Origin: Mobula hypostoma
Taxonomy: Eukaryota
DNA length: 64,000 nucleotides
Reading direction: 5' to 3'
Assembly: GCF_963921235.1 (NCBI RefSeq)
Contig: NC_086097.1
Coordinates: 28,956,001 to 29,020,000 of the forward strand
Shown here: positions 2,616-63,342 of the stretch, piece after piece
How the letters are laid out: every line of letters begins with the position of its first letter
Numbering within the stretch: the stretch's first letter is position 1
Position numbers and translations under genes: made by a program
Notes under the pieces: generated by a model
The model's input: only the letters and a program-made list of their open reading frames with translations
Database searches by the model: none
Told to the model about the DNA's origin: nothing

Positions 2616-2808
2616 CATACATCAAAGTTGCTGGTGAACGCAGCAGGCCAAGCAGCATCTATAGGAAGAGGTACAGTCTGTCCTGACGAAGGGTCTCGGC
2701 CTGAAACGTCGACTGCGCCTCTTCCTATAGATGCTGCCTGGCCTGCTGCGTTCACCAGCAACTTTGATGTATGTTGCTTGAATTTCCAGCATCTGCAGAA
2801 TTCCTGTT
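2616..2808 (+). mobile_element. Short palindromic Penelope-derived insertion in a CR1 RT region
   Basis: About 60-bp inverted arms around a hammerhead. Flanked by a 14-bp direct repeat ATAAGATGCTGCAG (2602-2615, 2809-2822). Confidence 0.8.
2680..2713 (+). ncRNA. Minimal hammerhead motif
   Basis: GTC CTGACGA AGGGTCTCGGCCT GAAAC GTC GAC. Confidence 0.75.
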
Positions 2809-3884
2809 ATAAGATGCTGCAGATTAGGCTACTTTAACAGGATTGTTATTATGGGAGTGATGTAAGGCATGGATAGAAGATTGACTGACTGTCAGGGGGC
2901 AAAAACTGAGAATAAAGGAGGTCTTTTCTGGTAGGCTGCTGGTGGCTAGTGGTGTGCCTCAGGGGCTGGTGTTGGGATCGCTTCTTTTCATGTTATACTG
3001 TATATCTATGATTTGGATGAAGGAATTGATACATAGTGGAATTGATGGCTTTGTGGCCAAGTTTGCTGACGATATGAAGGTAGGTGGAGGAACAGGTGGT
3101 GTTGAGGAAGCATGATGTCTGTAACAGGACTTCAACAAATTGGGAGAATGGGCAAAGAAGTGGCAGACGGAATATTGTGTAGGGAAGTGTAGAGTCAAGC
3201 ACTTTGGTAGAAGGAATAAAGGCATAGATTATTTTCTAAACAGGGAGAGAATTCAAAAATCAAATGTGCAAAGGGACAGAGACTTGGGAGTTCTCATGCA
3301 GGATTCCCTAGAAGTTAAATTGCAGCTTGAGTTAGTGGTAGGGAAGGCAAAAGCAATCTTAGCATTCATTTCGAGAGGACTAGAATACAATAGCAAGGAT
3401 GTTATGCTGAAGCTTTGTAAGGCACTGGTCAGATCACACTTGGAGTATTGTGAACAGTTTTGGCCCTTACCTAAGAAAGGATGTGCTGGCACTGGAGAGG
3501 GTCAAGAGGAAGTTCACGAGAATGATCCCACAAATGAAAGGGTTAACCTACGAGGTGTGTTTGATGGTTCTGATCCTGTACATGCTGGAGTTTAGAAGAA
3601 CGAAGGGAGTGTTCATTGAAATGTATCAACTAGATAGAGTGAATGTGGAGAGAATATTTCCTATAGTAGGGGATTCTAGGACCAAAGGGCACAGCTTCAG
3701 AATTGACATTGCTTTCGAACGGAGATCCCTTCAGTCAGAAGGTCGTTAATCTGTGGTATTAATTGCCTCAGACAGCTGTGCTGGCCAAGTCATTGGGTAT
3801 ATTTAAGGTGGAGGTTGATAGCTTTTTGGTCAATCAGGACATAAAAGCTTATGTGGAGAAAGCAGAAGAATGGGACCAATATAT

Positions 3885-5850
3885 AAATATTTGGATAGAC
3901 ATGGAGCGATTAAGGATAGCCAGCATGATTTTGTGTGTACTAGGTCACATCTAACCAACTTATAGAATTTTTTGAGGAAGTTACCAGGAGAGTTGATGAA
4001 GACAAGGTAGTGGATATTGTCTACATGGACTTTAGCAAGGCATTTGACGAGATCCCACATGGGAGGTTGGTCAAGAAGGTTCATTTGCTGGGCATTCAAG
4101 ATGAGGTAGTAGACTGGATTAGACATTGGCTTTTTGGGAGAAGTCAGAGAGTGATAGTAGATGGTTGGCCTCTCTGACTGCAGCCCTGCAGGGATCGGTG
4201 CTGGGCCCTTTGTTGTTTGTCATCTATATCAACAATCTGGATGATAATGTGATTAACTGGATCAGAAGTTTGTGGATGACACCAAGATTGGGGATATAGT
4301 GGGTAGCAGAGAAGGTTATCATGGCTTGCAATGAGATCTGGACCAAAAGGAGGGAGGAGAAGATGGCGGCGCAACGCAGTGCACGCGGCCGCTCCAGAAA
4401 TGATATCGGTATTTGTTAAGTAGGTACCGTGCACAATTCTGATTTGATGGAGACAGACATGAGAGCACGGAGGAACATCTGGTGAAACTTCTGAAATGCC
4501 TGTTTCGCTGCCGCTGCTACTGTGTGATCCGGAATCTCCGGAGGAGAAGGCCTCTGAGTCCTCGGCTTTGTGTGTTTCAGCGGCCGTGATGAGGTCGAAG
4601 GAGCTCGGCAGAGGATGACGCTTGGGAGGCTGTATCGGAGGGGCTGGTCGGAGGCTCGAAGTTTTCGGACGGACTCAGAGTCAGCTGTCGGGTGCTTCCA
4701 ATGCACCCGCAGTTGTCAGTTGTCGGTGCTTGGAGGTTTATGGCAGGGAGAGTTTCTCCCTTTTTGCCGCCTGCTATTGGGGACTATCGGAGTCGATCGG
4801 GACTTGAGACTTTTTTTTACCATGCCCATGGTCTGCTCTTTATCAAATTATGGTATTGTTTTACATTGCTGTAACTATATGTTATAATTATGTGGTTTTG
4901 TCAGTGTTAGTCTTTGGTTTGTCCTGGTTTTTTTTGTGATATCACTGGAGGAACATTGCATCATTTTTTAATGCAAGCATTTCTAAATGACAATAAACGA
5001 GGACTGAGTGTCTTCATAATCTAATCTAATCTAAATGGAGAAAGGAACTGAAAAGTGGTAGATGGAACTTAATGCAGACAAATGAGAGGTGTTGCATTTT
5101 GGTAGGACCAACCAGAGTAGGTCTTACACAGAGACGGTAGGGCACTGAGGAGTGCAATAGAACAAAGGGATCTGGGAATACAGGTCCATAATTCATTGAA
5201 AGTGGTGTCACAGTTTGATATGGTTGTAAAGAAAGCTTTTTTTTTGGCACATTGGACTTCATAACTCAATGTATTGAGTACAGGGGATGGGATGTTATGT
5301 TGAATTTGTATAAGACATTGGCCGAATTTGGAGTATTGTGCACAGTTTTGGTCACATCCAGTAGGAAAGATGTAAATAAAGTTGAAAGAGCACAGAGAAA
5401 ATTTACAAGGATGTTGCCTGGCCAGGAGGACATGATTTACATGGAATGATTGAATAGGTTAGGAATTTATTCCTTGGAATGTAGAAGATTGAGAGGAGAT
5501 TTGGTAGAGGAATACAAAATTATGAGGGGTATAGACAGGGTAAATGCCAGCAGGCTTTTTCCACTGAGGTTGGGTGGGACACAACCAAAAGTCACGGGTT
5601 AAGATGAAAAGTTTAAGCGGAACCTGTGGGGAAACTTCTTCACTCAGAGGATGGTGAGAGTGTGGAATGAGCTGCCAGCACAAGTGGTGCATGCGAACTT
5701 GATTTCAATACTTAAGAGAAGTTTGGATAGGTTCATGGATGGTTGGGGTATGGACCCCAGTGCCGGTCGATGGGAGTAGGCAGTTTAAATGGTTCGACAT
5801 GGACTAGATGAGCCAAAGTTCCCGTTTCTATGCTGTACTTTTCTCTGACT
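3885..5850 (+). mobile_element. CR1 RT/3' fragment interrupted by a non-coding retroposon
   Basis: VDIVYMDFSKAFD motif near 4010; ERAQRKFTRMLPG; CR1-type 3' UTR. Confidence 0.8.
4350..5035 (+). mobile_element. Non-coding retroposon with an AAGATGGCG 5' end and (TAATC)n tail
   Basis: Related copies at 29551-30175 (+) and 53427-53808 (-, 5'-truncated). Confidence 0.75.
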
Positions 5851-6354
5851 CCAATGGGTTGAGAGAAATAAAAAAATATCAGCCATCAGCCGGGAGAGCA
5901 GGCCCGGTGGGCCGAATGGCCTACATCTGCTCTGATGTCTTATGGTCCATGGTCTTATTACGTCAGGTCTGGGGGAAGGTAGTCCTGGTGACTCCTCAAG
6001 TGAGGCCATGTTAGTAGAGATTTGAACCTGTAGTCCAGTATGGACTCGCTAGTAAAGAGGGATGTATTACAGACTCCCCAACCATCAGTAGGGTTTGCAC
6101 AGGTGAAATGTCTGTATGATCTGTTTCCCTGCCATGATATTCTATGATTCTACGTAGAGTACCCAGCCAGGTGGGAGGTTGGGGACAACCATTTGCCAGG
6201 CCCTTTCACTTTTAGCGGTGAATTTCTGTCAAATGAATGGTATGATGTAATCAGATGGGCTTTGATATCAGACGCACATCAAGTGCTGAATCACACTCAG
6301 GACTGCCCAGGTCAGTTTCCCAATAGTCGCTCATCAACATAGCACCCTCAATTA

Positions 6355-6715
6355 ACAGGTGACAGGGTGGAGGTACGTCTCTACCAAAGGAGGCTTAAGG
6401 TGTTCCTTCCCTCCACTAGCCTGCAGGTCACCCTTGGGCAAGGTATAGCACCTGCTTAGCCCCTCCAATCAGAGTCACGTGAAGCCGTATGAGCAGCTGG
6501 TGTATGTCACAAGTCCTGGTTATGCGACCAGCGACGCCAGGCAGACAAACTCTGAAGAGTATTGATAATGGCTGGGGTCACCCATCTTGTAAAGACACTG
6601 CACAGAAGGAGGGAATGGTCAACCACTTCTGCAGAAAAATTTGCCAAGAAAAATCATGGTCAAGACCATGACTGGCCACTACGTACGACAGAGCATATAA
6701 TGATGATGATGATGC
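6355..6715 (+). mobile_element. Short RTE-related retroposon with a (TGA)n tail
   Basis: Ends ATAATGATGATGATGATG; interior resembles RTE-type UTRs. Family assignment is inferred. Confidence 0.45.
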
Positions 6716-7701
6716 ACCAAAACAAACGTGCAAAATGGATCCATCTTCCAGGCAACACACGCTCACATACTGTAATGAAGTACACACAAACTGCCAAAGA
6801 TCTAGCATTACACTGTCACTAACGTAGGCTGACATCCAAGATGCTGGAGGAACTCCCCAGGTCAGGCAGCATCTAAGGAGGGAAATCGGTGAATGTGTAA
6901 GATCTTCCTTTCCATTCCTGATGAAAGATCTCAACCTGAAATGTTGACTGTTCACTCACTTTCAAAGATGCCTCCTGGCCTGCTGAGTTCTTCCAGCATT
7001 CAACCTGGATTAGAGAGCATGTCTTACGAGGATAGGTCTTTGCAACGAAGTAGGTCGAGAGATGACTTGATGGAGATGAATGAGGTGATAAGAGCCACAG
7101 ATCGAGTGTACGGCCAACACCTTTTCCCCGGGGCAGAGATGGCTAATATGAGGGAGGGGGGCATAATTTTATGGTGATTGGAGGAAAGTATGGCAGAGGT
7201 TAATTTTTTTTTTAATTTTATGCAGAGTGGTGGGTGTGTGGAAACCGTTGCCAGGGGTGGTGGTAGAGGCAAACATATTAGGAACATTTGAGAGACTTAG
7301 ACAGGCACATGGATGATAGAAACTGAAGGGTTACGTGAGGGAAGGGTTACAGTAGGTTAAAAGGTCGACACAAACGTCACGAGCTGAAAACTGTGTGTGT
7401 ACTGTATGTTCCATTTAGTATGGTAGACTGTTCTCGTACCACACTCTGCTCTTCAGTTCAATGTCTTGTTAGTAAAGTAAACATGGACAGAACAGCCCAT
7501 GTGAATCACTTGTGAACCATTGATTGACCAGCCCTTGTGAACCCCTCATGAGGCCACTGATTGACTAGCCCTGCTGAATCCCTTGTGAATGACCGATTGA
7601 GCACCCCCCGTGAACCACTGATCGACCAAAATCGCTATTTTTAAGGGTGTGTAGACATTTAATGTATGGTTGGGCAGGCCATGCTGAGGAAGTGACCTTA
7701 C

Positions 7702-7809
7702 CAGAGTCTGGATGAAGCAGTTCTCTGCTAACATTTCCATCAGGTACTGCACCCCCTCGGCGTCAATCCCATTGTGTTCCAGATCCAGTATAGTGACTGC
7801 TGTATTGGT
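7702..7809 (-). CDS. LRRC74A: LRRC74A-like coding exon (TNTAVTILDLEHNGIDAEGVQYLMEMLAENCFIQTL), RI-like LRR
   Basis: ttttcttcAG acceptor, CTG|GTAAGG donor, 108 nt, phase 0 to 0. LxLxxNxIxxEG LRR consensus. No later exons were recognised; they probably lie left of the window. Confidence 0.88.
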
Positions 7810-7927
7810 CTGAAGAAAATCAAAGGTTGTGTTTATTCCATCTACCCAGCACTCTTTGCCTCACGCAACACACATCAAAGTTGCTGGTGAACGCAGCAGG
7901 CCAGGCAGCATCTCTAGGAAGAGGCGC

Positions 7928-7963
7928 AGTCGACATTTCAGGCCGAGACCCTTCGTCAGGACT
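7928..7963 (-). ncRNA. Minimal hammerhead motif with a GAAAC>GAAAT change
   Basis: Reverse complement reads AGTCCTGACGAAGGGTCTCGGCCTGAAATGTCGACT. Confidence 0.65.
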
Positions 7964-8720
7964 AACTGAAGGAAGAGTTAGTAAGAGATTTGAAAGTGGG
8001 AGGGGGAGGGGGAGATCCAAAATGATAGGAGAAGACGGGAGGGGGAGGGATGGAGCCAAGAGCTGGACAGGTGATTGGCAAAAGGGATATGAGAGGATCA
8101 TGGGACGGGAGGCCTAGGGAGAAAGAAAAAGGGGAGGGGGGAAGCCCAGAGGATGGACAAGGAGTATAGTGAGAGGGACAGCGGGAGAAAAAGGAGAGAG
8201 AGAAAAAAATATATAGACATATCAGAATGGGAGTGGGCCGTGGAAGCCACACACATTTTAATTCCACGTCCCATTCCCATTCTGATATGTCTATCCACGG
8301 CCTCCTCTACTGTAAAGGTGAAGCCACACTCAGGTTGGAGGAACAACGCCTTATATTCCGTCTGGGTAGCTTCCAACCTGATGGCATGAACATTGACCTC
8401 TAGCTCCCGTTAATGCCCCTCCTCCCCCTCGTACCCCATCCGTTATTATTTTTTTTATTTTATATATATATATATTCTTTTTCTCTCTCTCCTTTTTCTC
8501 CCTCTGTCCCTCTCACTATACTCCTTGCCCATCCACTGGGCTTCACCCCTCCCCCTTTCTTTCTCCCTAGGCCTCCTGTCCCATGATCCTCTCATATCCC
8601 TTTTGCCAATCACCTGTCCAGCTCTTGGCTCCATCCCTCCCCCTCCTGTCTTCTCCTATCATTTTGGATCTCCCCCTCCCCCTCCCACTTTCAAATCCCT
8701 TACTCACTCTTCCTTCAGTT

Positions 8721-8756
8721 AGTCCTGACGAAGGGTCACGGCCTGAAACGTCGACT
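8721..8756 (+). ncRNA. Minimal type-I hammerhead ribozyme motif (PLE-associated)
   Basis: AGTC CTGACGA AGGGTCACGGCCT GAAAC GTC GACT: stem I AGTC/GACT, both core boxes, palindromic ACGT stem III, GUC cleavage triplet. Confidence 0.8.
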
Positions 8757-9539
8757 GTACCTCTTCCTAGAGATGCTGCCTGGCCTGCTGCGTTCACCAG
8801 CAACTTTCATGTGTGTTGCTTGAAATTCAAGCATCTGCAGATTTCCTCGTGTTTGCCTCTCTTTGCCTCACCTTTTTTCCAGAGTACCTCTTCCCACTCT
8901 CACTGTAATCAGACTTTTATACCAGACTTTAAAGGCCTTTTCTGCCTGGGGTAAGGGTGTAGGGTTAGGAGCTGGGGAGTGCCATTCTGATCAGCTATAA
9001 CCCTTCCAGCACTGCCTGCCCATGCACGTTGCTGCTCGCAGGTGAATTTCAGTGCCTGCCGAGATGCTGGCACAGAACGATACAGCCCTTCGGCCCATGA
9101 TATGTTGTGCCAAACACAATGCCAAGTAAAACTAAACTCAACCACCTGCACATCAAAGTCAAAGTAAATTTATTATCGAAGTAAGGTTACATCACCATAG
9201 ACAACCCTGAGATTCATTTCCTTGCAGGCATTTACAGGAAAATAAAGAAATACAATAGAATGTTTGGAAATCCATACATAAACAAACAACCAGAGTCCAA
9301 CTGAAGACAAATCATGCAAATACTAAAAAACAAATAAATTATACTGAGAATATGAGTTGTAGATCCCTTGAAAGTGAGTCTGTAGGTTGTGGAATCAGTT
9401 CCGTGTTGAGATGATTGAAGTTATCCACACCGGTTCAGGAACCAGATGGTTGTAGGGTACATGATACACATCCCTCCATTCCCCCCAATTCATTTCTCAT
9501 TTGAGTGCTACTTTCATACCATCACCCTGGCAGCCCATT

Positions 9540-12500: not shown

Positions 12501-12775
12501 TAGGACGGAGATGAGGAGGAACTGCTTTTACCAGAGAGTGGTGAATTTGTGAAATTCTCTGCCCAACGAAGCAGTGGAGGCTATCTCAGTAAATATATTT
12601 AAGACAAGGTTGGGTGGAGTTTTGCATAGTTGGGGAATTAAGGGTTATGGGGGAAAGGCAGGTAGGTAAAAATGAATCCATGGCCAGATCAGCCATGATC
12701 TTATTGAATGGCGGAACAGGCTCAACGGGCCAGATGGCCGACTCCTGCTCCTATTTCTTATGTCCTTATGTTCTT
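9540..12775 (+). mobile_element. Long degenerate CR1 LINE (ORF1 esterase end, APE endonuclease, RT, 3' UTR)
   Basis: WHQYWGRRELFHWDRLRLNHVGT (esterase); YLNARSI, MGDFN, LDLVL (APE); YRPVSLTSVVGKMLE, QHGF, FADDTK (RT). Many frameshifts. Confidence 0.9.
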
Positions 12776-14023
12776 TGGCCCACAATGCTGTGACAACCTT
12801 TTAACCTACTCCATGATCAATCTAGCCCTTTCTTTCTACATAGACTCCATTTTTCAATTGTCCAAGTGCCAATCTAAGAGAGGTCCCTTCATGCACTGCC
12901 TCTACCACCACCCCTGGCAGCACATTCCATGCACCCACCACTCTCTGTGTAAAAAACTTAACTCTGACATCCCCCCCTATACTTTCCTCCGATCTCCTTA
13001 AATTCATACCCCCTCGTATTAGCCATTTCCACCCTGGGAAAACGTCTTTGACTGTTCAGTTCTTATCATGGCATCTTAAAACACCCCCCAACCTTAAAGG
13101 CACATCCTGTTTTATTTGATATTTTCTACCCTGTAAACATTTAAAGATTCTGACTGTCTACCCTATACTTCCCTCAGGGTTGACCAGACAGACCAATAAT
13201 ATTATGAGCCTCTGTTAATCTTATATACTTCCATCAGGTCACCACTCAACCTCCTTCACTGTAGGGAAAATGAGCCCAGCCTATCCAATCTCTCTGCACA
13301 ACTAACGTCCCCCAGAGCATCCAGCATCCTGGTGAATCGCTCCCGTACTCACTCCAGCGCACAGTTGACCACCATCTAATCTGATACTCCTGCTCTCTGT
13401 CATTTTTTTTTTCGACCCCTGAAGAGTTCTTTCTTTCAGCGTACCCTCAGGGCTAGGGATAGAGTGCCCGGTGTTTGATTAGCTTTATTTCTAACGTACA
13501 TTGAAAAGTCCAGTGAAAAGCACTGTCTGTGTCAATGACTAACACAGATGTGCCGGGGGCAGCCTGCAAGTGTTGTCGTGTTTCTGGCACCAGCCTGGCG
13601 CGGCCACAGCTCACCAACCCTAGCATCCACATATCTGGGATGTAAGAGGAAGCGGAAGCACCCAGTGGAAATGGGATGAACGTGCATACAAACTCCTTAC
13701 AGACAGCGGTGGTAATTGAACCGGGGTTGTTGATGCTGTAAAGTATTACCCTAACCATTATATTACCATGCTGCCCTCACTGACTATTTAAGGTCAATAC
13801 CCACAGAATGCTGGGGGACCTCAACAGGTCAGGCAGCGTCTATGAAGGGGAATAAATAGTCGACGCTTCGGGTTGGGTCCCTTCATCAGGGCTGGAGAGG
13901 AAGGGGGCGGAAGCCAGAATCAGAATCCCTTGTGTTTACAACCATTTCAGATAGTCAGTCTGCAATCCACACTCACCCCCTTTCCCCGACACCTAGCTGC
14001 TCACCACAGCACCAGATACCTAC

Positions 14024-14196: not shown

Positions 14197-14645
14197 CTTT
14201 ACAGCAAGTTGGGAGATTAAAATCAATTGATTATTGAATAATCATAATGACAGAGAATTACATAGAACATAGAACAAGATAAAGGGATTAGCTTTATTTG
14301 TCACATGCACATCAAAACATTGAAACAAACGGTGAATTGCATCATGACAAACACAGTTGGAGCGTGTGCTGGGGGCTGGAAGCATGGCGTCACTTATGGG
14401 GTGCCCCCAGCACAATCCTCGATGTGTGTTGGTGGTTGACACCAAACAAAGCATTTCTCTGTATGTTCCCATGTTTGTGACAAATAAAGCTTTTTTTTAA
14501 ATCTTTATCAGAGCAACACACAAACTGCTGGAGGAACTCAGCAGAGTGGGCAGGGAATAAACAGCTGACTCTTCGGGTTGAAACTGAAGTTCCTCCACCA
14601 TTTTGTATGTGTGTTGCCCGGGATTTCCACGATGGATTTTCTCAC

Positions 14646-14766
14646 CGTCGTTTTCCAGGTCAGTATCAAAATCATCCTCGCTCGCCTTTTCCAAGATCTT
14701 ATCCACGTTTTCTTTGCAGAGGGACTTGACGCTTTCAATGTCGGCCACACCAGAGCTTTGATCCAT
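14646..14766 (-). CDS. LRRC74A: LRRC74A-like coding exon (MDQSSGVADIESVKSLCKENVDKILEKASEDDFDTDLEND-G); exon 5' boundary at 14779 or 14790
   Basis: ATG at 14766. The acidic 'DFDTDLE' motif matches the segment before the LRR region in LRRC74 proteins. Ends GAC G|GTGAG (phase 1). Upstream acceptors ctccAG and tttAG. Confidence 0.75.
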
Positions 14767-15408
14767 AATGGTGCGAGAGCTGGAGAGATACTAAAGCACA
14801 GGCAAGTGTGAGCGGGGTCCCAGAGCACCGTTCCATCCCAACGAGTGGTCATGTACACGTAGAGACAGAGAGTAACACAGCTCAGGAAACTATCCATCAC
14901 AATTGTCACATGTTGTGGAGCCCTTTCCCCAGGCGTGAGACTACTGAATTCCCTGCTACCACCACGTCTCATCGTGTATGAAGCACCAGTAGGAAATAAC
15001 GTTTATTTTCTGATGTGTGTCATAAATACCACTTATTATTTGTTAACTTATTTGCGGTGACCATGCCTTATGTGTGATGTGTGAGTTATATGTACTGTGT
15101 TGTACACCTTGGTCCAGAGGAACGTCGTTTTGCTTGCTGGTATACATGTACATGGTTAAATGACAACAAACGTGAACTAGGGTGTACTGAGGCATAGCGA
15201 AAAACTTTGCCAACGCATCACTTCATCCCAACCGTCCGTTAAGAGAGTACAAAGGAAAAGCAGTAACAGAACACAGAAGGAAGTGTTGGAACAGGCTGGG
15301 AAAAAAGCTGCAGAGTCGTAGACTCGTCGAGGGCACAACCCTCCCTACCATCGAGGACATCTTCAAAAGGCAGCATTCATCATTAAGGACTCCACCAAGC
15401 AGGGCAAG

Positions 15409-15717
15409 CTCTCTCCTTATCACTGCCACCGAGGTGGCACAGGAGCCTGAACCAGGGCACGCTCTCTCCTTACCACTGCCACCGAGGTGGCACAGGAGCC
15501 TGAACCAGGGCACGCTCTCTCCTTATCACTGCCACCGAGGTGGCACAGGAGCCTGAACCAGGGCACGCTGTCTCCTTACCACTGCCACCGAGGTGGCACA
15601 GGAGCCTGAACCAGGGCACGCCCTCTCCTTACCACTGCCACCAAGGTGGCACAGGAGCCTGAACCAGGGCACGCCCTCTGCTTACCACTGCCACCGAGGT
15701 GGCACAGGAGCCTGAAG
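15409..15717 (+). repeat. 53-bp minisatellite, about 6 copies, derived from a Rex1-like LINE 3' segment
   Basis: (G/A)AGGTGGCAC recurs at 15431, 15484, 15537, 15590, 15643 and 15696 (period 53). Confidence 0.95.
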
Positions 15718-15856
15718 GCACACACTCAGCATTTCAGGAACAGCTTTTCCCCTCTGCCAAACAACAGGAATTCTGCAGATGCTGGAAATTCAAGCAACAC
15801 ACATCAAAGTTGCTGGTGAACGCAGCAGGCCAGGCAGCATCTCTAGGAAGAGGTAC

Positions 15857-15892
15857 AGTCGACGTTTCGGGCCGAGACGTTTCGTCAGGACT
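15857..15892 (-). ncRNA. Minimal hammerhead motif with disrupted stem II
   Basis: Reverse complement reads AGTCCTGACGAAACGTCTCGGCCCGAAACGTCGACT, inside a PLE end fragment at about 15765-15925. Confidence 0.6.
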
Positions 15893-16233
15893 AACTGAAG
15901 GAAGAGTGAGTAAGGGATTTGATTTCTGAACGGACAATGAACCCGTGAACACTACCTCAATATTTCTGCTCCTTTTCCACTACTTATCTATCTTCTCTAT
16001 ATGTATATATTTCTTATTATAATTTAAGATAGATTTTATGTATTGCACCATACTGCTGGCACAAAACAACAAATTTCATAATAATAGATGATAATAGTGA
16101 GAATAATCCTGATGCTGATTCTAATTCTGATTCTAATTATTGTCACATGACTGAGGTACAGCAAAAAGCTCGTCTTGCATACTGTACAAACAGGTCAAAT
16201 CGTTACACAGTGCACCGAGGAAGATCAAGGTAA

Positions 16234-19850: not shown

Positions 19851-20193
19851 CCAAAACCAGGTCGGCCATTATGAAATGGCGGAACAGACTCGATGGGCGA
19901 AATGGCCTAATTTTGCTCCATACCTTATGGTCTTATACTGTAATCGGGATCATTCCCGGAACTCTCATAGCCAGCACCTAGAATCTGAAAGTTAACTCTC
20001 TGTAAACTGAATCAGATACGGCATTGACATAATAATATAAATACAGTAGATTCTGGTTAATTGGGACACATCAAGACCAGTACATTTCAGCACAGTAAGT
20101 GGCTGCCCCAATTAGCCGAAGCTTCATGGAAATAGATAAAAAGGCATAAAAAAGATAAACTACTGTTTAACTGAGAAACATATTATATATTTA

Positions 20194-21833
<1,640 letters not shown>

Positions 21834-21984
21834 TCAATGAAATACAGAACAAATTGAAGCAGTTCTATAGTATTGTAGTACTATTGGTAGTGTTCTAATT
21901 TGTTCTGTATTTCATTTAAATACATAATTTGTTACTTAGTTAAGTGGCAGTTTATCTTTTTTATACCTTTTCAACTATCCTAGT

Positions 21985-28320: not shown

Positions 28321-29550
28321 TATGTTTAAGTACGTGATTACATATGTCATCACACCAACACGTTATGTGTATCCCTAGCTTAAAGTAAACACAAAGTTAA
28401 TGTTTTGAAGTTGCATAACTGCACAGTTAGTTACGGAAAAAGTACAGGCAGGTAAACAATAAGGTGCAAGGCCATGCCAAGGTAGCTGTGGAGTCAAACG
28501 TTCATCGTATTGTACTAGGGAACCATTCAATAGTCTTAAATCCACAAGTGTTTCAACAGATGCTGGAAATCTGTGTAACAGTGGGATAGGCAGTCAGTCC
28601 TGATGAAGGGTCTCAGCCCGGAACTTCAACTGGTTATTCCTTTCCATAGACGCTGCTTAATTTGCTGAGCCCCTCTGGCATTTTGTATGTGTAACAGCAG
28701 GGGAGAAGCTGCCCTCGAGCCTGGTGGTAAGTACTTTCAGGCTTTTGTAGCTTCTGCCTGATGGGAGGGGGAAGAGAAAACGTCCAGGGTGGGTGGGGTA
28801 TTTGATTCTACTGGCTGCTTCACTGAGGCAGAGAGAAGTGTGGACAGAGTCCATGGAGGGGAGGCTGGGTTCCGTGGTGTGTTGAGCTGTGTCCACAGTT
28901 TTCTATGGTTTCCTTGAGGAAAGATTAAGCAGACGTGCCCCCATATTCTGGAGACTGGAAGAAGTGGCGATCTCCCCGAAACAAACAAAATTCTTACGGA
29001 GTAATGCGGAGTTAATATTGCTTTGGGCAGGGTCACGAACTAAGGGCCATAGAACTTAAAATAAGTGTTGGCTGTTCGGGACAGAGATGGGGAGACATAG
29101 CTTCACTCAGAGGTGACAAATAGGCAGAGTAGCGTAGTGATTAGAGCAACGCTTTACGGTGCCAGCGATCACTGACTGAAGTTCAATTCCCGCTGCTGCC
29201 CGTAAGGAGTTTGTACCTTCTCCCATGTCCACATGGATTTCCTCTGGGTGTCATAAAGTCATCGTGTCATGGAGCACTACAGCACTGAATCTGGCTGTTA
29301 GGCCCATCTAGACCATACTGAACTGATATTCTGCCTAGCCCCGCTGACTCATTCCAGGACAGTAACCCATAAAGTCATAACGGGTTCTCCGGCTTCCTCT
29401 CACATTCCAAAAATGCACAGCTTAGGGTCAGTGAGTTGTGGGCATCCTATGTTGGTGCCGGAAGCAGAGTGACACTTGCAGGCTGCCCTCAGCAAATCTT
29501 GGACTGTGTTGGTTGTTGATCATACAACACATCTCAATATCTGTTATGGT

Positions 29551-43949: not shown

Positions 43950-45201
43950 GTAAATCTCCTCTGCACCCTCTCTAAAGCTTTCACATCCTTCATATAATGA
44001 GCTGGCCAGAACTGAACACAATATTCCAAGTGTGGTCTAACCAGGGTTTTATAGATCTCCAATATTATCTTGCAGATCGTGAACTCGGTCCTAAGTTCTT
44101 TAGAAGCCATGAATGAGGCTTAAACCTCGTGGTTTAGAAAGAAAAGTAACCAACTCAGTCTAGTAAGAAAGACTAAGAATTTTGCTTCATTGACAACTTT
44201 ATACTGAAAACTAACTCAAACTAGACAGATAAGAAAATTCTTGTGATGCTAGCAGCGTGTGGGACAAATGCAAGAGATCTTACAGATGCTGGAAATCTTG
44301 AACAACACATAAAATGCTGAAGGAACTAAGCATATCGGGCACCATCTATGGAGGGGAATAAACAGTGAATATTTTGGGCTGAGATCTTAAATCAGGACTG
44401 GAAAGGAAGGTGGCAAAGCCAGTATAAGAAGGTTGGGGGTGGGATGGAGAATGAACTGATAGGTGATAGGTGAAACCAGGTGAAAGGGAAGATGGGTAGG
44501 TGAAGATGAAGTAAAAAGATGGAAGAGGATAGGTGGAATAGGTAAAGGGTTGAAGAAGAAGGAATCTGATAGGAGATGTCAGTGATTCATAGAAGAACGA
44601 AAAGAGAAGAGGAACCAGGGAGAGGTGAAGGACAGGTAAGGAGATGAGATAGAGTGAGAGGGCAACCAGAATGGAGAATAGTAAAAGAGAAGGAGAGAGG
44701 GGAGAGAAATTAGTTGAACTTGGAGAAATCAGTGTTTGTAGCAGCAGTACAGTGCAAAACATTAAAAAAAAGCTATAAATGACAAAAATAAGTAGTGCAA
44801 AAGACACATAACAAGGTAGCGTTTATTGTTTCATGGACCATTCAGAAATTTGATAGGAGGGGAAGAAGATGTTTCTAAAAATGTTGAGTTTGGGTCTTCA
44901 GGCTCCTGTACCTCCTCCCTGATGGTGGTAATGAGAAAAGGGCATGTCTTGGATGGTGAGGTTCCTTAGTGATGGATGCTGGCTTCCTGAGACACCACCT
45001 GGGATATTCCTTGGCCCAAAATATTGGAGATATCCTTAATAATGGATGCCAGCTCCTTTGCTAGCTATAAGTAGGACTTATCAGCACTTTATACCCTTTG
45101 AATCATGATATGGCAATAGGTTCAGGGACAGCTGTGTGAAAATTGTCCTGCTGTTACACGACCTAAGGTTTATTTTATTGAATAAACAAAAACTGATTGT
45201 A

Positions 45202-50695: not shown

Positions 50696-52290
50696 ATTCA
50701 GTGTCCCTCCCTCTGGACTTGGGCCATCACAGCACATCCCTGTCAGTAAGACTTGACCACCAAAATGGACCCAGTGGAGAGAGAACTGCTGACCAAGGCC
50801 TGGACGTTTGTTGGTCAGGTAGGAGAGAAGTTAACGTCACTTGGAGGCTGTGTTGGCAGAGGTGACAACTACTTACAGAACAGTAAGTCCAGCCTAAGTC
50901 GAAGTTCATGGAGCAGAAGTTAAAGTCAGTGGAGACCTGGATGGCAGAAATGCCTCTCATAGTGTGACAATTACTTTCAGAGCAGCTAGCTCAGTCCACA
51001 CAGAAAGAGTGGATATCAGCACCCACAGCAACTCCACCCCAGACAGCCGGAATCAGGTGGCGGCCATTACAGGTCTCCCTGATGCACTGCAGGACAGTCC
51101 CACTCCCACTTCCTTCCCTTTAACAGTCTCACCTGCCTCAGCTACTAATGCCCATGACTGCGCCCAGGATAGAACCGAGTATTCCTCTACCAGGCAGATA
51201 CTCTGGAGACCCCAATGGCTGTAGGAAATGTATTACCCAGTGTGAGCGGACTTTCTGAGTCCAGCCAGGTCAGTTTGGTGATGATGCGTGCAACCTGGCT
51301 TACATGGTGAATCCCTTAGACAGACTCCCGACTCAGCCTGTTCAATGCTCTATGAGAACAAGGCTCCACTGCACCCCAGTCTTTCCAGCAATTTGCAGTC
51401 GAGTTCAAGAGAGTGTTTGATCTTCCAGTACAGGGTCAGGAGGCTGCCCACCGACTCCTGGACCTGCATCAAGAGAAAAGGGCAGCAAGGGACTAAACAG
51501 CAAAGTTCAGCACACTTACGGTTGAGACTGAGTGGGACGAGAGACCCCTCATCACTGCCTTCCAGCACGGGCTGAGCACAGGGGTCCAGCATGAGATCAC
51601 CGTGCACGACAAGCAGGACAACCCGGATGACCTGATAAATCTGGCCGTTACTAATGACAACTGGGCAACTGAGTGCCCCTGAGACGGAATGCCCTGAGCT
51701 TCCTACTCTTTAGATCCCTGCCTGTCTTCACCCTTCCCTTGTTACCCAGTGCACAGTCTGCAGAGAAGCCATGCAGGTGGGGTACATACATCTATCTCAG
51801 GGTGATCTCTGTAGCACCCAGGTTTCATGTCCCAAGTACCCAGTGAAAGAGAAAACCTGTCAGCAGGAGTTCTGACAGGTCAATTCTCCATGCCAGCATC
51901 TTCCCCTAATCATGTAATGCTCCCAACGTCCTTATCGTGGGGCTCCCAGACCCACGAGCTTCAGGCATTTATTGACTCTGGGGCAGCCGGGAACCTCATG
52001 GATAGCTCTCTGGCTCAAAGATGGAAAGTTCCAACTCAGCAATAGAGAGAGAACATCAATGCCAAGGCTCTGGATGGTCAGCCTCTGGGCACTGGCAAGA
52101 TCCACCTTTCCACACAACCCCTCCAACATGTGCTAGAAGGCAACCATGGCAACAGCTCTCGTTCCGTCTTGTTGATTCGCCTGAACTGCTGCTGGTATTT
52201 TGCCTTTCCTGGTTATCTCGACTCAACCCACTGATTGATTGGTTCTTAATGGCACTCCAAGAGTAGGGACTGGCATGCCTCTCTACCTGT

Positions 52291-53100
52291 GTGAGTCCAG
52301 CTCAAGTCCTTGTCAGTGTATCCCCTCCTGTACCATTTGCTAATGTGGACCTCTCTGGTGTTCCAGCTGAATATGCTGACCTTCTTGAGGTCTTTAGTGA
52401 GAAGAAGGCCACCTCCCTGCCTCCACACCACCCATACGACTGCAGCATTGACCTCTTACCCAGTACTAGTCCTCCTCGGGGCCATCTCTATTCCCTCTCT
52501 TGTCATGAAATGGTGGCCATGGAAGAATACATGAATGAGGTATTGGTCTTGGGAATTATCCATCCATCAACCTCACCAGCAGGAGCGGGCTTCTTTGTGA
52601 GCAAGAAAGATGAGAAGTTCTGTCCTTGCATTGATTATCGACCCCTCAACAACATCATGGTGAAGAACCACTCCCCTCCTTCCCTGCTTGCCTCAGCGTC
52701 TGAACATCTCCAAGGAGCAACCATGTTCTCCGAGGTAGACGAGTGCAATGGTTACAGCCTGATTCGCATCCGAGAAGGGGACGGGTGGAAGACAGTATTC
52801 AGCACTTCCATTGGCCGTTATAGGTACCTTGTGATGCCATTTGGTCTGGCAAACGCCCCAGCTGTTTTTCAGGCCCTGTTCAACAATGTGTTCCAGGACA
52901 TGTTGAATCAGTTTGTTTTTGTGTATTTGGACAATGTTCTTATCTATTCCTGTTCTCACCAGGAACACATTCAGCATGTCCAGAGGATTCTCAAATGGTC
53001 CCTTGAGAACAACCTTTATGCCAAGCCAGAGAAGTGGGCTATCTCCTCAACCCATGTAAAGGTCAGGCACTCACAGAGTGGCCCAAACTTTCCACAGTGA
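52291..53100 (+). pseudogene. Gypsy reverse transcriptase remnant (YLDD changed to YLDN)
   Basis: 269-aa ORF with Gypsy RT motifs, flanked by frameshifts and stops. Confidence 0.85.
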
Positions 53101-53426
53101 AACAAGTGAGGCAACTCACAGGGTGTGCAAACCTCTCTCGCCGCTTCATCATAAACTTCAGTTCCATTACGGCCCCCAGAAGTGCACTCACCAAGAAGAC
53201 CTTTGCAGGATTCCTTTGGACAAGTGAAGTATCCTCACAACTAAATCGATGCTTCACCACTGCCCGGAGCTGCAACATCCAGACCCATCCTGTTCATTTG
53301 TCATTGAGATTGATACATAAATGTCAACGTTGGGCCCGTCCCCCCCCAGCGCTCTTCCGTGGATAATCGGCTGCATCCCTGAGCTTTTTTTTCCCTAGTT
53401 GCTTGACTCCTGCCATGTGTACTATC

Positions 53427-53808
53427 AGATTAGATTAGATTATGAGGACACGCAGTCCTCTTTTATTGTCATTTAGTAATGCATGCATTAAGAAATGATA
53501 CAATATTCCTCCAGTGTGATATCATAGAAACACAGGACAGACTAAGACTGAAAGACTAACAAAAACCACATAATTATAACATGTAGTTACGACAGTGCAA
53601 CAATGTCATAACTTGATGAAGAACAGGCCATGGGCACAGTAAAAAAAAGTTCAAAGTCTCTTGAAAGTCCCACATCTCACGCAGATGGGATAAGGAAGAA
53701 AACTCTCCCTGCCATGCCCAACCACAGTCCAACTCTGAGTCGTCCGAAAGCTTCGAGCTCCGGTCAGCCTTCCCACACCAAGTACCGAGCACCATCTCTG
53801 CCGAACTA
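53427..53808 (-). mobile_element. Truncated third copy of the (TAATC)n-tailed retroposon, inside Gypsy pol
   Basis: Starts AGATTAGATTAGATTATG and is highly similar to the reverse complement of 29810-30175. Confidence 0.75.
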
Positions 53809-54719
53809 TGCTTTAAACTGAGAATTTCTGGCTGTCAAGGAAGCCCTGGAGGCATGGCAACACGTGCTGGAGGGGGCAGAGCACCCCATTCTGGTTTGGA
53901 CAGATCACAAGAGCCTCTCCTACATTCATGGTACCACTCCACTCCACTCCTGTCAAGCTTGTCGGGCTCTGTCTTCACCTAGTTTACTTTCACCCTAACC
54001 TCCCGTTCGGGCTGCAAGAATACGAAGGCCGGTGATCTCTCCCACAGGTTTCAGATCACTGAGGATGCCAGTCCAGAGACCATCCTTCCTCACTCATGCA
54101 TTGCTGCTCCGGTGACTCGGGGAATAGAGGCAGAGGTGAGGGCTGCCCGACACTCAGATCCAGGCCCAGGTGGGGACTTTCTAACCCGCTGTTTGTCCCT
54201 GCCATTGTGCTCCCCAGAGTGCTGGAGTGGGGTCACTCTTCCCATCTGGCTGGCCATCTGTAGATTCAATGGACCCTGAAGTTTATAAAGAGATGACTTT
54301 GGTGGTTGTCTATATCTATATCCCAGAATGTCCACGAGTTTGCCTCTGCCTGTCCCACTTGTGCGCACAAGATATCATGTCAATGTCCTGCCGGTCTGCT
54401 CTGCCTGCTGCCTGTGTCTCGCCCCCACTGGTCCCATCTCTCGGTGGATTTCATAACGAGCTTGGTGGAAACACCACCATCCTGGTGGTTATGGACTGGT
54501 TTTCCAAAGCTGCTCGCTTCATTGCTCTCCCCAGGATCCCGTTGACTTGTGAAACTGCTCCCCTCATGGTTTAGCACGTGAGCAGGCTGCACGGCTTCCC
54601 TCAGGGCATGGTGTCTGACTGCGGACCACGGCACATGCCCTATTTCTGGAAGACTTTCTGTTCTCTTTCGGGAGCCACAGCCAGCCTCTCGTCTGGTTTT
54701 CACTCCCGATCAGGAGCCG

Positions 54720-55395
54720 GAGACAAATTTCAAAGTAAAACTTATTATTAAAGTACATACATGTCACCACATACAACCCTGAGATTCATTTTCCTGAGGG
54801 AATACTCAGCAAATCTATAGAACAGTCACAGTAAATGGGATGAATGAACAAGAAGCTGCAAATGTAAATATAAATAAATAGCAATAAATAACGAGAGCAT
54901 GAAATAACAAGATAAAGAGTCTTTAAAGTGAGATTATTGGTTGTATGAACACCGGAAATAGAATGTGTGTAGTTATCCTCTTTAGTTCAAGAGTCTGATA
55001 TTTGAGGTGTAGTAACTATTCTTGAACCTGGTGGTGTGAATCCTGGGGCACTTGTACCTTCTGCTGGATGGCAGCAGAGAGAAAAGAGCATGGCCTGGGT
55101 GGTAAGGATTTTTGATGGATGCTGCTCTTCGATGGAAATGTTTTATGTAGATGTGTTTAGTGGTTGGGAGGGCTTTACCTGTGATGTACTGGGCCAAATC
55201 TACTACCTTTTGTAGGATTTTCCACTCAAAAGCATTGGCGTTCCCATACTAGGGTGTAATGCAGCCAGTCAATACACTTTCCACCATCCATCTATAGAAG
55301 TTTGTCAAAGTTTTTGAAGATATGCCGAATTTCAGAAGACCCCTGAGGAAGTAGAGGCTTTCTTGGCTACTATATTTATATAATGTGTCCAGAAC
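54720..55395 (-). mobile_element. Rex1/Babar-like 3' fragment; related pieces near 17270-17870, 28690-28910, 31810-32310, 36730-37490, 39020-39350 and 57960-58490
   Basis: HPGHALFSLLPSSRRY...TTRFKNSYY; ESVLTGCIT. Confidence 0.75.
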
Positions 55396-55586
55396 AGGTT
55401 CTCTGAGATTGTGACACCCAGGAGCTCCCAATGGGTTCCAGCAAAGATTGCCCACAATAACTGCCAGTAATTCTCCACTGTCATATATCAAAGTATATTT
55501 ATTACCAAAGAATATATAAGTTAAACTGCCTTGATATTTGTTTATTACAGGCAGCCACAAAGCAAGGAGCCCAATTTTAAAAAAAA

Positions 55587-55851
55587 CACAAACACGAGGA
55601 ATTCTGCAGATGCTGGAATTTCAAGCAACACACATAAAAGTTGCTGGTGAATGCAGCAGGCCAGGCAGCATCTCTAGGAAGAGGTACAGTCGACGTTTCG
55701 CATCTCTAGGTAAAGGTACAGTCGACGTTTCAGGCCGAGACCCTTCGTCAGGACATCTGACGAAGGGTTTCGTCCCGAAACGTCGTCTGTACCTCTTCCT
55801 ATAGATGCTGCCTGGCCTGCTGCATTCACCAGCAACTTTTATGTGTGTTGT
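55587..55851. mobile_element. Palindromic Penelope-derived end fragment
   Basis: Same family as 2616-2808 and 7865-8835. Inverted arms with an internal short duplication. Confidence 0.75.
55720..55787. ncRNA. Back-to-back hammerhead motifs (minus 55720-55754, plus about 55757-55787)
   Basis: Minus: GTCCTGACGAAGGGTCTCGGCCTGAAACGTCGAC. Plus: CTGACGAAGGGTTTCGTCCCGAAACGTC. Confidence 0.7.
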
Positions 55852-57058
55852 TTTTAAAAAAGAAACATCTAGACCAACCCCCAATGTGCAGAGAAAGAGA
55901 AAAAAAAAACAAATCATGTAAACAATAGAAGCAAGCAACAACAGCAGCATTTTGAACCAAATTGTGACCCCAGGTCCAAATCCCCAGAGCAGCTCTGAAT
56001 AGCCCCAAAGCTTCGGTGTTCAGTTCATCATATTAGGTGGACAAATCACCATGAAGTTTTCAGAGATGAAGCACAGAAGCTGGGGGCAGTGTCGCGGAGA
56101 GAGGAGCCCCCAGTCTATCTGGGTCAGTGTTTAAATCGCCCAAATAGTGGATCGTACCTTGCATTAGGACCCAGGCTCTGCCGCGATGAATCTCTCTGGG
56201 CCGAGATCGCACTGCTGAAGGACTTCTCCAAGTCGGCTTGGCACCCAGAGTGATCCAACCTCCCCCGACTCTCGACATCCTGCATTTTCCCCCTCTGATC
56301 CCAGAAGGCATTCCAGCCACCATTCTTCCCTGACCAAGATATTGACAAGGGAGATCTTGCTCCAGAGCATTTGGTCCAGTGCTACAACCACACATGGAGA
56401 CGGGCCAGGGCTTCTCTGGTATGCACTCAGAAACGCTATATGCCTGGCAGGTTGATTGGCTCCACTGACAGGTGAAGCCTCCTGAGCCGGGGGTGGGGGG
56501 AGAGAAATGTCAACTGGTATCCAGAGATCTTCCTTTGAAAGTTGAAAGCCGTAAGTTACCCCCACGGTTTGTGGGGACCATTCCTGGTGGAGACTATCAA
56601 CAGTCTCATGTGCACCTTTCATCATCAATGAAGATCCATCCAGTGTTCCATGTTTCCTACCTCAAGCAGATGACTACCTCCTGCCTTGCTCCAGTCACCC
56701 CCCCCCACGTGGGGGATGGGTCCCTGGTCTACACTGTGTGGCACTTGCTGACATCTCCTCAGGTGTGGGACAGAGTCCAGTATCTTGTGCGTTGGGTGGC
56801 CCTGAGGAATATTCTTGGGTTCTGGCTTATGATATCCTGGACAAGTCTTTCATCCTGGACTTCCAGAGGATTCAGGGAGGGTATATAGTAGCACCTTGGG
56901 AGGGTTACAATCATGGACTCTGCCACAGGGTCTGGGCACCCTTGCGAGCAGACAGCTGAACAGGATCAACAATCATGCTCATGAGTTTGCATGTTCCAGA
57001 CAATTAGTATTTCACTGTGGTTCTATTTAATTCCCCTCCTTTTGATTCAATCTTGTTG

Positions 57059-61005: not shown

Positions 61006-61915
61006 TAATTTTCTTGTGAATGTTGTGTCCCTGATGCTCTCTGCCTGTGACGCTGCTGCGAGTAAGCTTTCCATTGCATCGGGTAGTAAACTCGACTTTG
61101 AGATGTGCCAAATGTGGTACAGCAGCAAGACTAAGCCAGGAAATCATGTAGTTGGAAATTACTAGACAAAAAAAATCTTCAGGACAGGATTGACATGCTC
61201 TCAAAAAGGCAGAGATTGAGCCGGGTTAATCAGAATGGATTTAGTTACAGAGACAAAGACTCTGAGAAGTGCGTGTTACACTTGATATCATTCGGTTCCC
61301 ACCTATTATTACTGGGGCTATATGCAGCCCTTCCAAATTGAATTGGTGTCTTGCAGAATATGATACAATCTTGCGATTAACAAAATGCCAATATGATTTA
61401 TTCTGGGGAAATTTGGAGTTTGTATCATGCAATAAGAAAAAGGAAACACCATATCATTGAATTTCTGGGTTCGGTATTTCTATATACTACACTCCGCTCC
61501 ACGATAACCCGGGACATCTCGCAGCGGGAAGCCCAAGCACTAGGACTGCCTCGTCCCGTGGTTCCCCGCGCCGTGTCGATACCACCCGCCCGGGATCACC
61601 CAGGATTCCCCCATTCTGAGAACCCCCGAGACACCACACACCTGCTTCACTTCGGAATTGCCCTTCCCTCCAACTCCGGGATCTCTCTTCCCCCACCCCC
61701 AGGTCAAACTCCAGGAGTGCCCCCTCCAATTCCAGGAGCTCTCCTACCCCCACCCGCTCAAACTCGTGTTCACCCCCAAACTCCGGAATCACCCCCCCCC
61801 CCGCGCGCACACACACACTGGAAATATCCCAAATTAGTACAGCTCCAGCATCGCCCGTCCTTCCACTCGGCGATCTCTCTCCCCTCCCAAACTGCTGAGC
61901 TCGCCCCTCCCTCCG

Positions 61916-62094
61916 CACTCCGGGATCACCCCCACCACACACACACACACACAAACACAACTCCGGGATCACACCGCCACACACACACACACAACTCCGG
62001 GATCACACGACCACACACACACACACACAAACACAACTCCGGAATCACACCGCCACACACACACACACACACACACAACTCCGGGATCACACCG

Positions 62095-62128
<34 letters not shown>

Positions 62129-62150
62129 CCACCCCTCCGGGATCACACCG
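61916..62150 (+). repeat. Compound tandem array: ACTCCGG(G/A)ATCAC units separated by (CA)n tracts
   Basis: Six units near 61916, 61958, 61992, 62033, 62076 and 62134; degenerate units further upstream at 61590-61795. Confidence 0.9.
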
Positions 62151-62209
62151 TCGTGCCCGTCGCGTCGACCAACAAAGCGGCGGCCGCGGCGCATGCTCGG
62201 TGCGGCGGC

Positions 62210-62273
62210 ATGGTGGGCTCCTTGCTGTGTTATGTGTTGGCGCCGCTCGCCACTCTCCTCAGCCGGATCACAG
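62210..62273 (+). CDS. ANGEL1: ANGEL1-like first coding exon (MVGSLLCYVLAPLATLLSRIT-G)
   Basis: Strong Kozak context ggcATGG, 64 nt, ACAG|GTGGGT donor. Peptide resembles the recalled human ANGEL1 N-terminus MIASCLCYLLLPATRLFRALS-D. Divergent orientation to LRRC74A matches the human gene order as recalled. Confidence 0.75.
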
Positions 62274-63306
62274 GTGGGTGGCGGCTGGGGCCGGGACCGG
62301 GATCGCTCTGCGAGCGGGAGGGTGGCTGACGGACCTGGCAACTCCGGCTGGGTGTGACTCTCTCCGCTTCCAGCTCTGTTTTCGGCCGCCCGGGCCAGTT
62401 GCCCCGTGCGCCGTTTGGGTTGAGGCCTGGCCTCGGGGTATCCCGGGATCTTATCCCCTCCCTCCCTCCCTCCCTCCCCACTCCTTTCACCATCACCGAC
62501 TACGTCCCCGTCACCGTCCCGCCTTCCATCTCCCGGTTCCCTTGGTCCCCTTCCCCCCCGACCTTTTCAAATCCTCTGCCCTGCCTCCTCACACTCCTCA
62601 TCCTTACCCCCGCACCCTCCTCACCCCACACCCCCCTCACTTCCTCACCCAGCTCACTCCTATCGCTCCCGAACCCCCTTATTTTTCACGGAAGTTAACA
62701 AAAGGTGCAGAAATGGAGAGAAATTGCCAAGTAATGGGAAAAAATAATGTAAACACGAGGAATTCTGTAGATAATGTTATCGTTTGTATCGGGATATGTC
62801 TGCAAAAGTAGATAGGTTAAACTTTAACTTGTGAAAACACATCTGGAGTGTTATGTACAGTATTGACATTCTTATTAAAGATGTTCTTATGAAAAGGTGG
62901 ATTAGTGATCTCAGTGTACCTCAGTCTGGGATTGCTCCTTATTGTCTACCTGTACTGCACCTTATTCTGCATTTTGATACTGTTTTCTTGTGTGTTACCT
63001 CAATGCACTTTGGAATGCCATGATCTGTATGTATGGCATGTTTTTCCCTGTATCTCTGTACATGTAACAATAATAAATCTACCAGTTTGCCGATTTTACC
63101 AACTTAATTGCTATTGGTTTATTACAGAGATACAGCGAAACGTTTTTGTTTGTGTGCCATGCATTCGGATTATGCTCTATACTATACACAAAATGTTGGA
63201 GAAACTCAGCAAGTCAAGCAGCATCTATGGAGAGAAATGTGTTTCAGGCTGAGACCCTTCATCAGGACCCCTGATGAAGGGTCTCAGCCTGAAAGGTCAA
63301 CTATTT

Positions 63307-63342
63307 AGTCCTGACGAAGGGTCTCGGCCTGAAACGTCGACT
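63307..63342 (+). ncRNA. Intact minimal hammerhead motif in ANGEL1-like intron 1
   Basis: AGTCCTGACGAAGGGTCTCGGCCTGAAACGTCGACT, preceded by two further degenerate cores at 63238-63302. Confidence 0.8.

Follow-up and report, generated by a model that had tools for sequence, protein, structure and literature searches.

Minimal hammerhead ribozymes (min-HHRs) have been described in the pseudo-long terminal repeats (pLTRs) of metazoan Penelope-like elements (PLEs), including Neptune, Poseidon and Xena of fishes, with vertebrate maxima of 4,000 copies in the coelacanth and 9,000 in Xenopus (Cervera and De la Pena 2014, PMC4209133). The parts of that study considered here name no cartilaginous fish, and a retrozyme preprint that includes one cartilaginous fish reports a maximum of 14,255 tandem copies (bioRxiv 2026.07.22.740005). 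In PAc, the Poseidon element of the green anole, reverse transcription that begins internally, within the 5' part of the RNA, makes the tail, both strands are extended, hammerhead mutants still insert and cleavage needs the protein (Frangieh et al. 2024, PMC11167929). We analysed a window of 64,000 nucleotides (nt) of the Mobula hypostoma genome (contig NC_086097.1, positions 28,956,001 to 29,020,000), in which a short motif recurs on both strands, and searched the genome (3.48 Gb) for its relatives. We are fairly confident that this motif is a minimal type I hammerhead in the pLTR of a young and very abundant Neptune-type PLE, and that its dispersed copies are truncated insertions which decay neutrally and for which little or no cleavage is predicted. 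Motifs of this class, and carriers of this type, are already known, and it is the scale that is unusual. Our literature searches on Penelope hammerheads in sharks, on Penelope elements in elasmobranchs and on truncation at the cleavage site brought up no paper that deals with this family or with the pile-up of 5' ends reported below.

A preliminary description of the window had listed seven copies and six decayed versions of the motif, all of Penelope origin, with a stem II pairing that would survive loop changes, and had proposed a very large family of self-cleaving RNA motifs inside introns. Positions are numbered hereafter from the first base after the predicted cut (0), so that C17 is -1, C3 is -28 and stem I starts at -32. 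A loose core search returned 15 places in the window, including all seven listed copies, and a coordinate check confirmed their places and strands as well as those of the six decayed versions (Table 1). The anatomy comprises a 4-base-pair (bp) stem I, the box CUGANGA followed by a single additional A, a stem II of 4 bp closed by a loop of 4 nt, the box GAAA, a loopless ACGU palindrome and the GUC triplet. Both core boxes and UH at the cut site are present in 7/7 copies, but these are not equally intact, as five pass a structure-only descriptor of the minimal type I hammerhead and only two, those with C3 at 8725 and 63311, are free of any flaw. Where copies in the window show C/T variants or loop changes, these reflect CpG decay, point changes or lineage differences and are not compensatory, contrary to what had been read in stem II. 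An Rfam scan of the window gave 17 weak matches at E<=1, none of them a hammerhead, with only sub-threshold microRNA-like hairpins; since the motif is without stem III, no hammerhead match was expected there and this result is not counted as evidence against it. The motif resembles published min-HHRs in its type I topology, both core boxes, the extra base between 9 and 10.1, the 4-bp stem I, the missing stem III loop, the palindromic 15.2-16.2 and its occurrence in both pLTRs, mostly as solo copies or close opposite-strand pairs (PMC4209133). It differs by a stem II of 4 bp, against 7-8 in Schistosoma, and by a near-uniform dominant lineage with G-U at 10.1-11.1 and an older lineage with A6C (PMC4209133).

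The exact 32-nt form has 49,641 matches in the genome, against 0 for the reversed control. In an unbiased sample of 1 Mb, made up of 100 stretches of 10 kb from fixed positions along large contigs, 30 motifs passed the descriptor, again with 0 for the reversed pattern. This extrapolates to some 100,000 copies in the whole genome that satisfy the descriptor (Poisson range about 70,000-150,000); the same sample holds 18 exact 32-mers for 14 expected. As exact and descriptor matches are abundant and both reversed controls empty, the motif is not a product of chance, and the proposal of a very large family is borne out, at roughly 10 times the vertebrate maxima of Cervera and De la Pena 2014 (PMC4209133). 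A profile search of the same 1 Mb detected 250 pLTR remnants, of which 156 span the motif and 57 of these keep both boxes.

The Penelope origin is likewise supported by the carrier. In the window, the tail of a GIY-YIG endonuclease is followed by a sense hammerhead and accompanied by an inverted partner, the whole (7861-8856) being framed by a 13-bp target duplication. A sister copy elsewhere in the genome (L083) has a 1014-amino-acid reverse transcriptase (RT)-endonuclease open reading frame (ORF) between two hammerheads 3512 nt apart, in a partial tandem with a pLTR on each side; the inverted 5'-truncated partner is seen at the window locus. Unbroken ORFs of 1010-1014 amino acids were present in 4 of the 20 fetched stretches, and a search with the RT piece of the sister locus gave 45,818 RT candidates, with 6 frames above 1000 amino acids among the 150 scored. 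Pfam matched the ORF to RVT_1 (E 2e-5) and GIY-YIG (E 0.002), and all intact ORFs carry a CX4CX2C linker between the two domains, a CX2-5CxxC zinc-finger linker being the mark of Neptune and Nematis (PMC8557442). Among 552 homologues with the same domains, the closest named is a protein of the bamboo shark Chiloscyllium punctatum (72%). Two classes of 3' ends, near +65 and +101 and thus about 36 nt apart, delimit the tail of the PLE, and the first ATG lies 138 nt behind the cut site. The element agrees with endonuclease-bearing (EN+) PLEs of the Neptune clade in its single ORF with RT then GIY-YIG, its linker, its pLTRs, its 5' truncation, its adjacent inverted copy and the 30-40-bp tail on one end (PMC8557442). 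The assignment to Neptune rests on the linker, which Nematis shares, and not on a tree; moreover, unlike these PLEs, the element has 10-15-bp target duplications at AT-rich sites with no evident microsatellite bias, and a strong pile-up of 5' ends at the front edge of the hammerhead (PMC8557442).

Selection on the structure was assessed in 80 metagenome loci of related elements, where the descriptor found 27 motifs, 25 of them in sense (control 0). In a search anchored on the ORF, a design chosen against circularity, core boxes alone were sought within 900 nt behind it; a match reached the C-terminus in 44 of the 80 loci, and 7 tails were too short, leaving 37 usable loci, 19 of which carry sense core boxes. 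Among 18 distinct related motifs, stem II forms in all 18 (mean of 4.6 after partner shuffling) and stem I in 12 (mean of 3.2), values that 0/2000 shuffles reached in either case, relatedness being uncorrected. Stem III is palindromic in 13 of the 19 loci, with four different palindromes (ACGU in the family studied here); four of the related loci (L271, L273, L278 and L292) have longer stem III palindromes of 6 and 8 nt, so that the length varies within the group. Related elements thus conserve the core, the stems and a palindrome in different letters, so that the structure is under selection in the master lineages. The compensatory pairing that had been proposed as a test of the motif is found across these related elements, and no compensatory change was seen among the sampled copies inside the Mobula genome.

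The dispersed copies behave differently. Once CpG and lineage-diagnostic sites are set aside, the differences in young copies amount to 4 of 376 core sites (1.06%) and 25 of 2162 flank sites (1.16%; p=1), and selection on the core at the insertion site, as expected under host exaptation, was not seen in them. A first version of this test (4/418 vs 156/2962, p=1e-5) was discarded, its flank excess being due to lineage-diagnostic sites and vanishing once these were left out. Together with the loss of one or both boxes in most spanning copies, this decay leaves the idea of a maintained self-cleaving family of intronic copies unsupported. The preliminary description had set core decay at the pace of the flank against the proposal as a whole; such decay is what we observe, and it refutes a host use of the copies but does not refute ribozyme identity, because selection acts on the master elements. 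A few exapted copies may nonetheless exist. Some results weigh against our overall assignment: both Pfam matches are under the curated cut-offs, no core was found within 900 nt in 18 of the 37 related loci, and older copies show a slight excess of core conservation (60/688 core vs 465/4080 flank sites, p=0.04), in a set of mixed lineages biased by the profile.

The ends of the insertions inform on the templates that were copied. Among 220 young alignments, only 3 of the 211 usable 5' ends fall at the cut site (0/+1), all in arms of inverted pairs, and a spike at this site, considered as a sign of cleavage in vivo, was rejected on this count; in the window, the inverted arm 2612-2678 of a fold-back insertion begins at the first base past the cut site. 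Many of these alignments were chosen via the motif, so that the unbiased subset weighs more: its 51 5' ends comprise 16 at -35..-22, 11 over -290..-36 and 0 at the cut site. The ends thus pile up at -36 to -22, around the start of stem I and not at the cut site, which suggests that the templates were uncut. Nested counts across the genome, with 69,308 matches reaching -12, 51,012 reaching -21, 37,833 reaching -29, 29,805 reaching -33 and 25,779 reaching -39, correspond to a loss per base of 6.0% over -33..-30 vs 2.4% over -39..-34, both intervals being CpG-free and the background being about 1.1%. An initiator-like motif (YYANWYY) stands at -32 in young and old lineages, with a putative branch point, pyrimidine tract and AG just upstream, as judged from the general consensus of initiators and splice signals. 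Taken together, the pile-up likely marks where the RNA of the element starts. Contigs from 4 of the 22 listed runs contain the family with loose ends near -32/-31, +66 and +100, although contigs cannot show starts or transcription. No solo copy with sense element sequence upstream of the acceptor-like site was found that would point to spliced templates, and no intron-type joint occurred among the 15 listed of 40 joints from the contigs of these runs.

Several points speak against a start at stem I. Base -33 differs in older lineages and may add to the drop in the nested counts, and of the full-length copies, the three that extend as far as the 5' motif have their ends at -427, -280 and -21, with no visible shared start at -32. 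Furthermore, the Penelope transcript of D. virilis begins far upstream, at a distance of 46 bp from an intron of 75 bp that follows it (PMC2377424) and the end of which meets helix I (PMC4209133). A real possibility, only somewhat short of probable, is that the pile-up reflects RT stops or fold-back of complementary DNA (cDNA) at hairpins around the 3' hammerhead instead of an RNA start. The same three full-length copies would fit it, and so would the short copies, 42 of 81 of which are arms of inverted pairs; the microhomology at fold-back junctions is often supplied by stem I or by the inverted repeat upstream. Against it, solo copies pile up too, with 14 of 39 ends at -36..-29 and a target duplication of at least 8 nt in 15 of the 39; RTs usually stop on the near side of a structure and not at its far edge; and the initiator-like motif at -32 is shared by young and old lineages. 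In the young lineage, at 8710-8735(+) of the window and in the sister copy, the pLTR bases upstream and the first core box together make an almost perfect inverted repeat.

Folding predictions give this start site a possible consequence. In an isolated 39-mer, stems I and II are predicted to form (P about 0.9), but the core also pairs with the cut triplet. In this model, which ignores core contacts, an inactive duplex (-29.7 kcal/mol) is much more stable than the active dimer (-10.9). With upstream pLTR from -60 or further, the predicted stem probability falls to 0.00-0.04, whereas it is 0.3-0.96 for a start at -34 or -32, and stem I is lost for a start at -30. This masking is only modestly specific, as upstream pieces also mask the motif when they are shuffled (16 and 7 of 200) or random (34 and 9 of 200). 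Copies truncated at -32 have a mean predicted stem II probability of 0.24 (n=10) vs 0.06 (n=34). We tentatively propose, as an idea with the chances rather against it, that the hammerhead forms the first 36 nt of the element RNA and is a position-dependent switch, masked by the upstream pLTR in read-through RNA and 3' copies and folding only with a start or splice at -34 to -32, and that 5'-tail priming of uncut RNA yielded tens of thousands of 95-135-bp insertions that contain nothing but the ribozyme. Our main reading, which does not require the switch, is that the RNA would start near -32, where stem I opens, and be copied uncut; RT would prime at +65 or +101 in the 3' pLTR to give long, ORF-bearing copies, or near the RNA 5' end, running off after 95-135 nt to give short copies and fold-backs. 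To be cleaved, the RNA would have to pair with another copy by way of the ACGU palindrome or be assisted by the protein of the element, and cleavage would serve the element in the processing of tandem transcripts, not the host. With PAc, the element would share a tail defined by a pair of RT start sites downstream of the hammerhead, a main template of uncut RNA and priming on both strands, which fits the inverted pairs; unlike PAc, the element belongs to another clade and its first ATG lies behind the hammerhead, the ORF of PAc starting inside it (PMC11167929).

The history of the master lineages complicates the function of the ribozyme. The youngest and dominant lineage has fixed U11.1, hence a G10.1-U11.1 pair, whereas G-C is found in older lineages, in 9 of 42 young copies and in 14 of the 18 distinct related motifs, the G10.1-C11.1 pair being highly conserved in published min-HHRs (PMC4209133). 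CpG decay was examined as a source of U11.1 and rejected, as the G12-to-A change occurs in 0 of 42 young vs 34 old copies. An older master lineage with its own flanks carries A6C (23 of 121 older sampled copies, also L311-L330), with 3,625 CpG-tolerant genome matches against 79,154 for A6. Successful masters have thus carried weakened versions of the ribozyme. A doubtful reading, which we hold to be appreciably less than probable, goes further and takes the motif for a vestigial or structural signal (protein binding, promoter or folding switch), with cleavage irrelevant even to the master. It draws on the spread of the A6C master, A6C having sharply lowered cleavage in Mg2+ in another hammerhead (PMC7151607), on the fixation of U11.1 and uncut templates in the youngest lineage, and on the Naiads, which thrive without hammerheads (PMC8557442). 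However, all other core bases have been conserved in distant elements, along with both stems and the palindrome, and G10.1-C11.1 predominates there, the A6C lineage looks extinct, and natural A6C ribozymes still cleave (PMC7151607).

The short copies, about half of the young ones (27/51), could also be regarded as a separate, self-replicating non-autonomous family, such as a short interspersed element (SINE), a miniature inverted-repeat transposable element (MITE) or a retrozyme. Their number and target duplications would suit such a family, and like the animal non-LTR retrozymes, which derive from pLTRs, they are non-coding, hammerhead-bearing pieces of pLTR (PMC7229834; bioRxiv 2026.07.22.740005). 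Retrozymes are nevertheless tandem units, whereas the copies described here are dispersed truncations and inverted pairs with breakpoints that vary from copy to copy (PMC7229834; bioRxiv 2026.07.22.740005); their letters match the autonomous pLTR and their 3' ends fall into its two classes. Neither the window nor the loci examined showed the unit in a tandem array, the genome not having been searched for rare arrays, and we consider a separate family highly improbable.

Two host genes surround the copies. An exon at 7693-7809 (-) matches Pfam LRR_6 and belongs to a leucine-rich repeat (LRR) gene, presumably LRRC74A-like, with a likely next exon left of the window (L045:247-378 (-), weak E 0.47) and an unconfirmed candidate upstream exon near 14643-14770 (-), for which no database match was found. 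A likely first exon at 62210-62273 (+) precedes an exon of an ANGEL-family gene, which we take to be ANGEL1, 7.4 kb past the window (L046:7357-7623 (+), E 7e-16). Pfam gave no match for 26 of 62 unique frames beside the window. The copies at 7959 and 63311 are likely sense and intronic, those at 2683 and 8725 likely antisense, and the other three are unplaced. Of the seven copies, then, two alone are placed in sense within an intron, and the palindrome of one of them is damaged. The maintained intronic family of the preliminary description is not upheld, and neither is active intronic self-cleavage, as published monomers of this motif type are inactive and dimers weak (PMC4209133) and folding predictions have the motif masked in the context of the element. 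It is highly improbable that intronic copies, by the tens of thousands, sever host pre-mRNA, singly or in pairs within one transcript, and thereby shape host RNA. In favour of this idea, about 100,000 descriptor-intact copies would give many long genes two sense copies, a flawless sense copy lies in a likely ANGEL-family intron, and copies truncated at -32 are free of the masking stretch, with a slightly more favourable predicted fold. It is opposed by the neutral decay of the core, the G-U pair at the conserved 10.1-11.1 position of the commonest lineage, the predicted pairing of core and cut triplet, the unfavourable energy of the active dimer, the inactivity of monomers (PMC4209133) and the lack of RNA-seq ends at the site in Anolis (PMC11167929). 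The presence of the flawless copy in the likely first intron of an ANGEL-family gene is probably a coincidence at this copy density. ANGEL2 removes 2',3'-cyclic phosphates, the type of end left by a hammerhead.

Table 1. Features of the element family in the 64,000-nt window (positions in the window; splice-like and initiator-like readings are drawn from consensus).
Feature	Coordinates	Strand	C3	Remarks
Fold-back mini insertion	2612..2808			Inverted arm 2612-2678, forward arm 2680-2808; 14-bp target duplication on both sides, read from the sequence
Minimal hammerhead	2679..2714	+	2683	Predicted cut after 2710; stem I of just 3 bp; likely antisense to the LRR gene
Decayed older-lineage copy	6832..7000	+	6918	
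Inverted 5'-truncated pLTR copy	7861..8222	-	7959	C15.2-to-U, perfect palindrome lost; likely sense in intron, about 50 nt upstream of the LRR exon
GIY-YIG endonuclease, C-terminal 48 codons	8251..8394	+		Translation matches the end of intact sister ORFs; too short for Pfam
3' pLTR	8395..8856	+		Rich in pyrimidines over one stretch; motifs resembling a branch point/acceptor and an initiator directly ahead of the hammerhead; tail follows
Flawless minimal hammerhead	8721..8756	+	8725	Predicted cut after 8752; likely antisense to the LRR gene
Decayed older-lineage copy	13795..13905	-		
Short copy (about -62 to +102)	15763..15922	-	15888	Stem II broken
Decayed older-lineage copy	28590..28690	+		
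Decayed older-lineage copy	44282..44398	-		Core lost
Head-to-head pair with small internal duplication	55597..55853		55751(-), 55757(+)	55751: stem I of just 3 bp; 55757: 5' strand of stem I absent, stems damaged including stem II
Older head-to-head pair	63183..63300		63265(-), 63271(+)	Decayed hammerheads
Short copy (-34 to +65)	63305..63404	+	63311	Flawless; predicted cut after 63338; likely sense in ANGEL-family intron 1

Other features of the window were recorded alongside these copies. The inverted pLTR at 7861-8222 places a sense branch-point/acceptor-like motif about 170 nt upstream of the LRR exon acceptor, with which it could compete. A DNA transposon presumably of the Tc1/mariner type occupies 20189-21838, its inverted repeats measuring 401 nt at 95% and its transposase being frameshifted, and decayed pieces of what we take to be a Gypsy-type LTR retrotransposon (RT, integrase and chromodomain-like frames) extend over 52267-56959, a region that contains the Penelope pair at 55.6-55.9 kb and a piece of a long interspersed element (LINE). 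Furthermore, a 53-bp tandem array of 6 copies lies at 15344-15767, a 42-bp CA-rich array at 61932-62167 stands just upstream of the ANGEL-family first exon, and a weak U6-like match below the Rfam threshold (24 bits, E 0.09) is found at 5354-5461 (+), beside a LINE fragment.

With uncut templates, insertions that stop at the front edge of the hammerhead and the spread of weakened masters, the insertion ends bear on the open question of the role of hammerheads in PLEs (PMC8557442). A near-uniform young family of about 50,000 exact copies, with intact ORFs, offers an unusual statistical power and a clonable Neptune-type element. Finally, the position-dependent switch, if true, would explain both the origin of pLTRs and the tolerance of a vertebrate for about 100,000 ribozyme copies.

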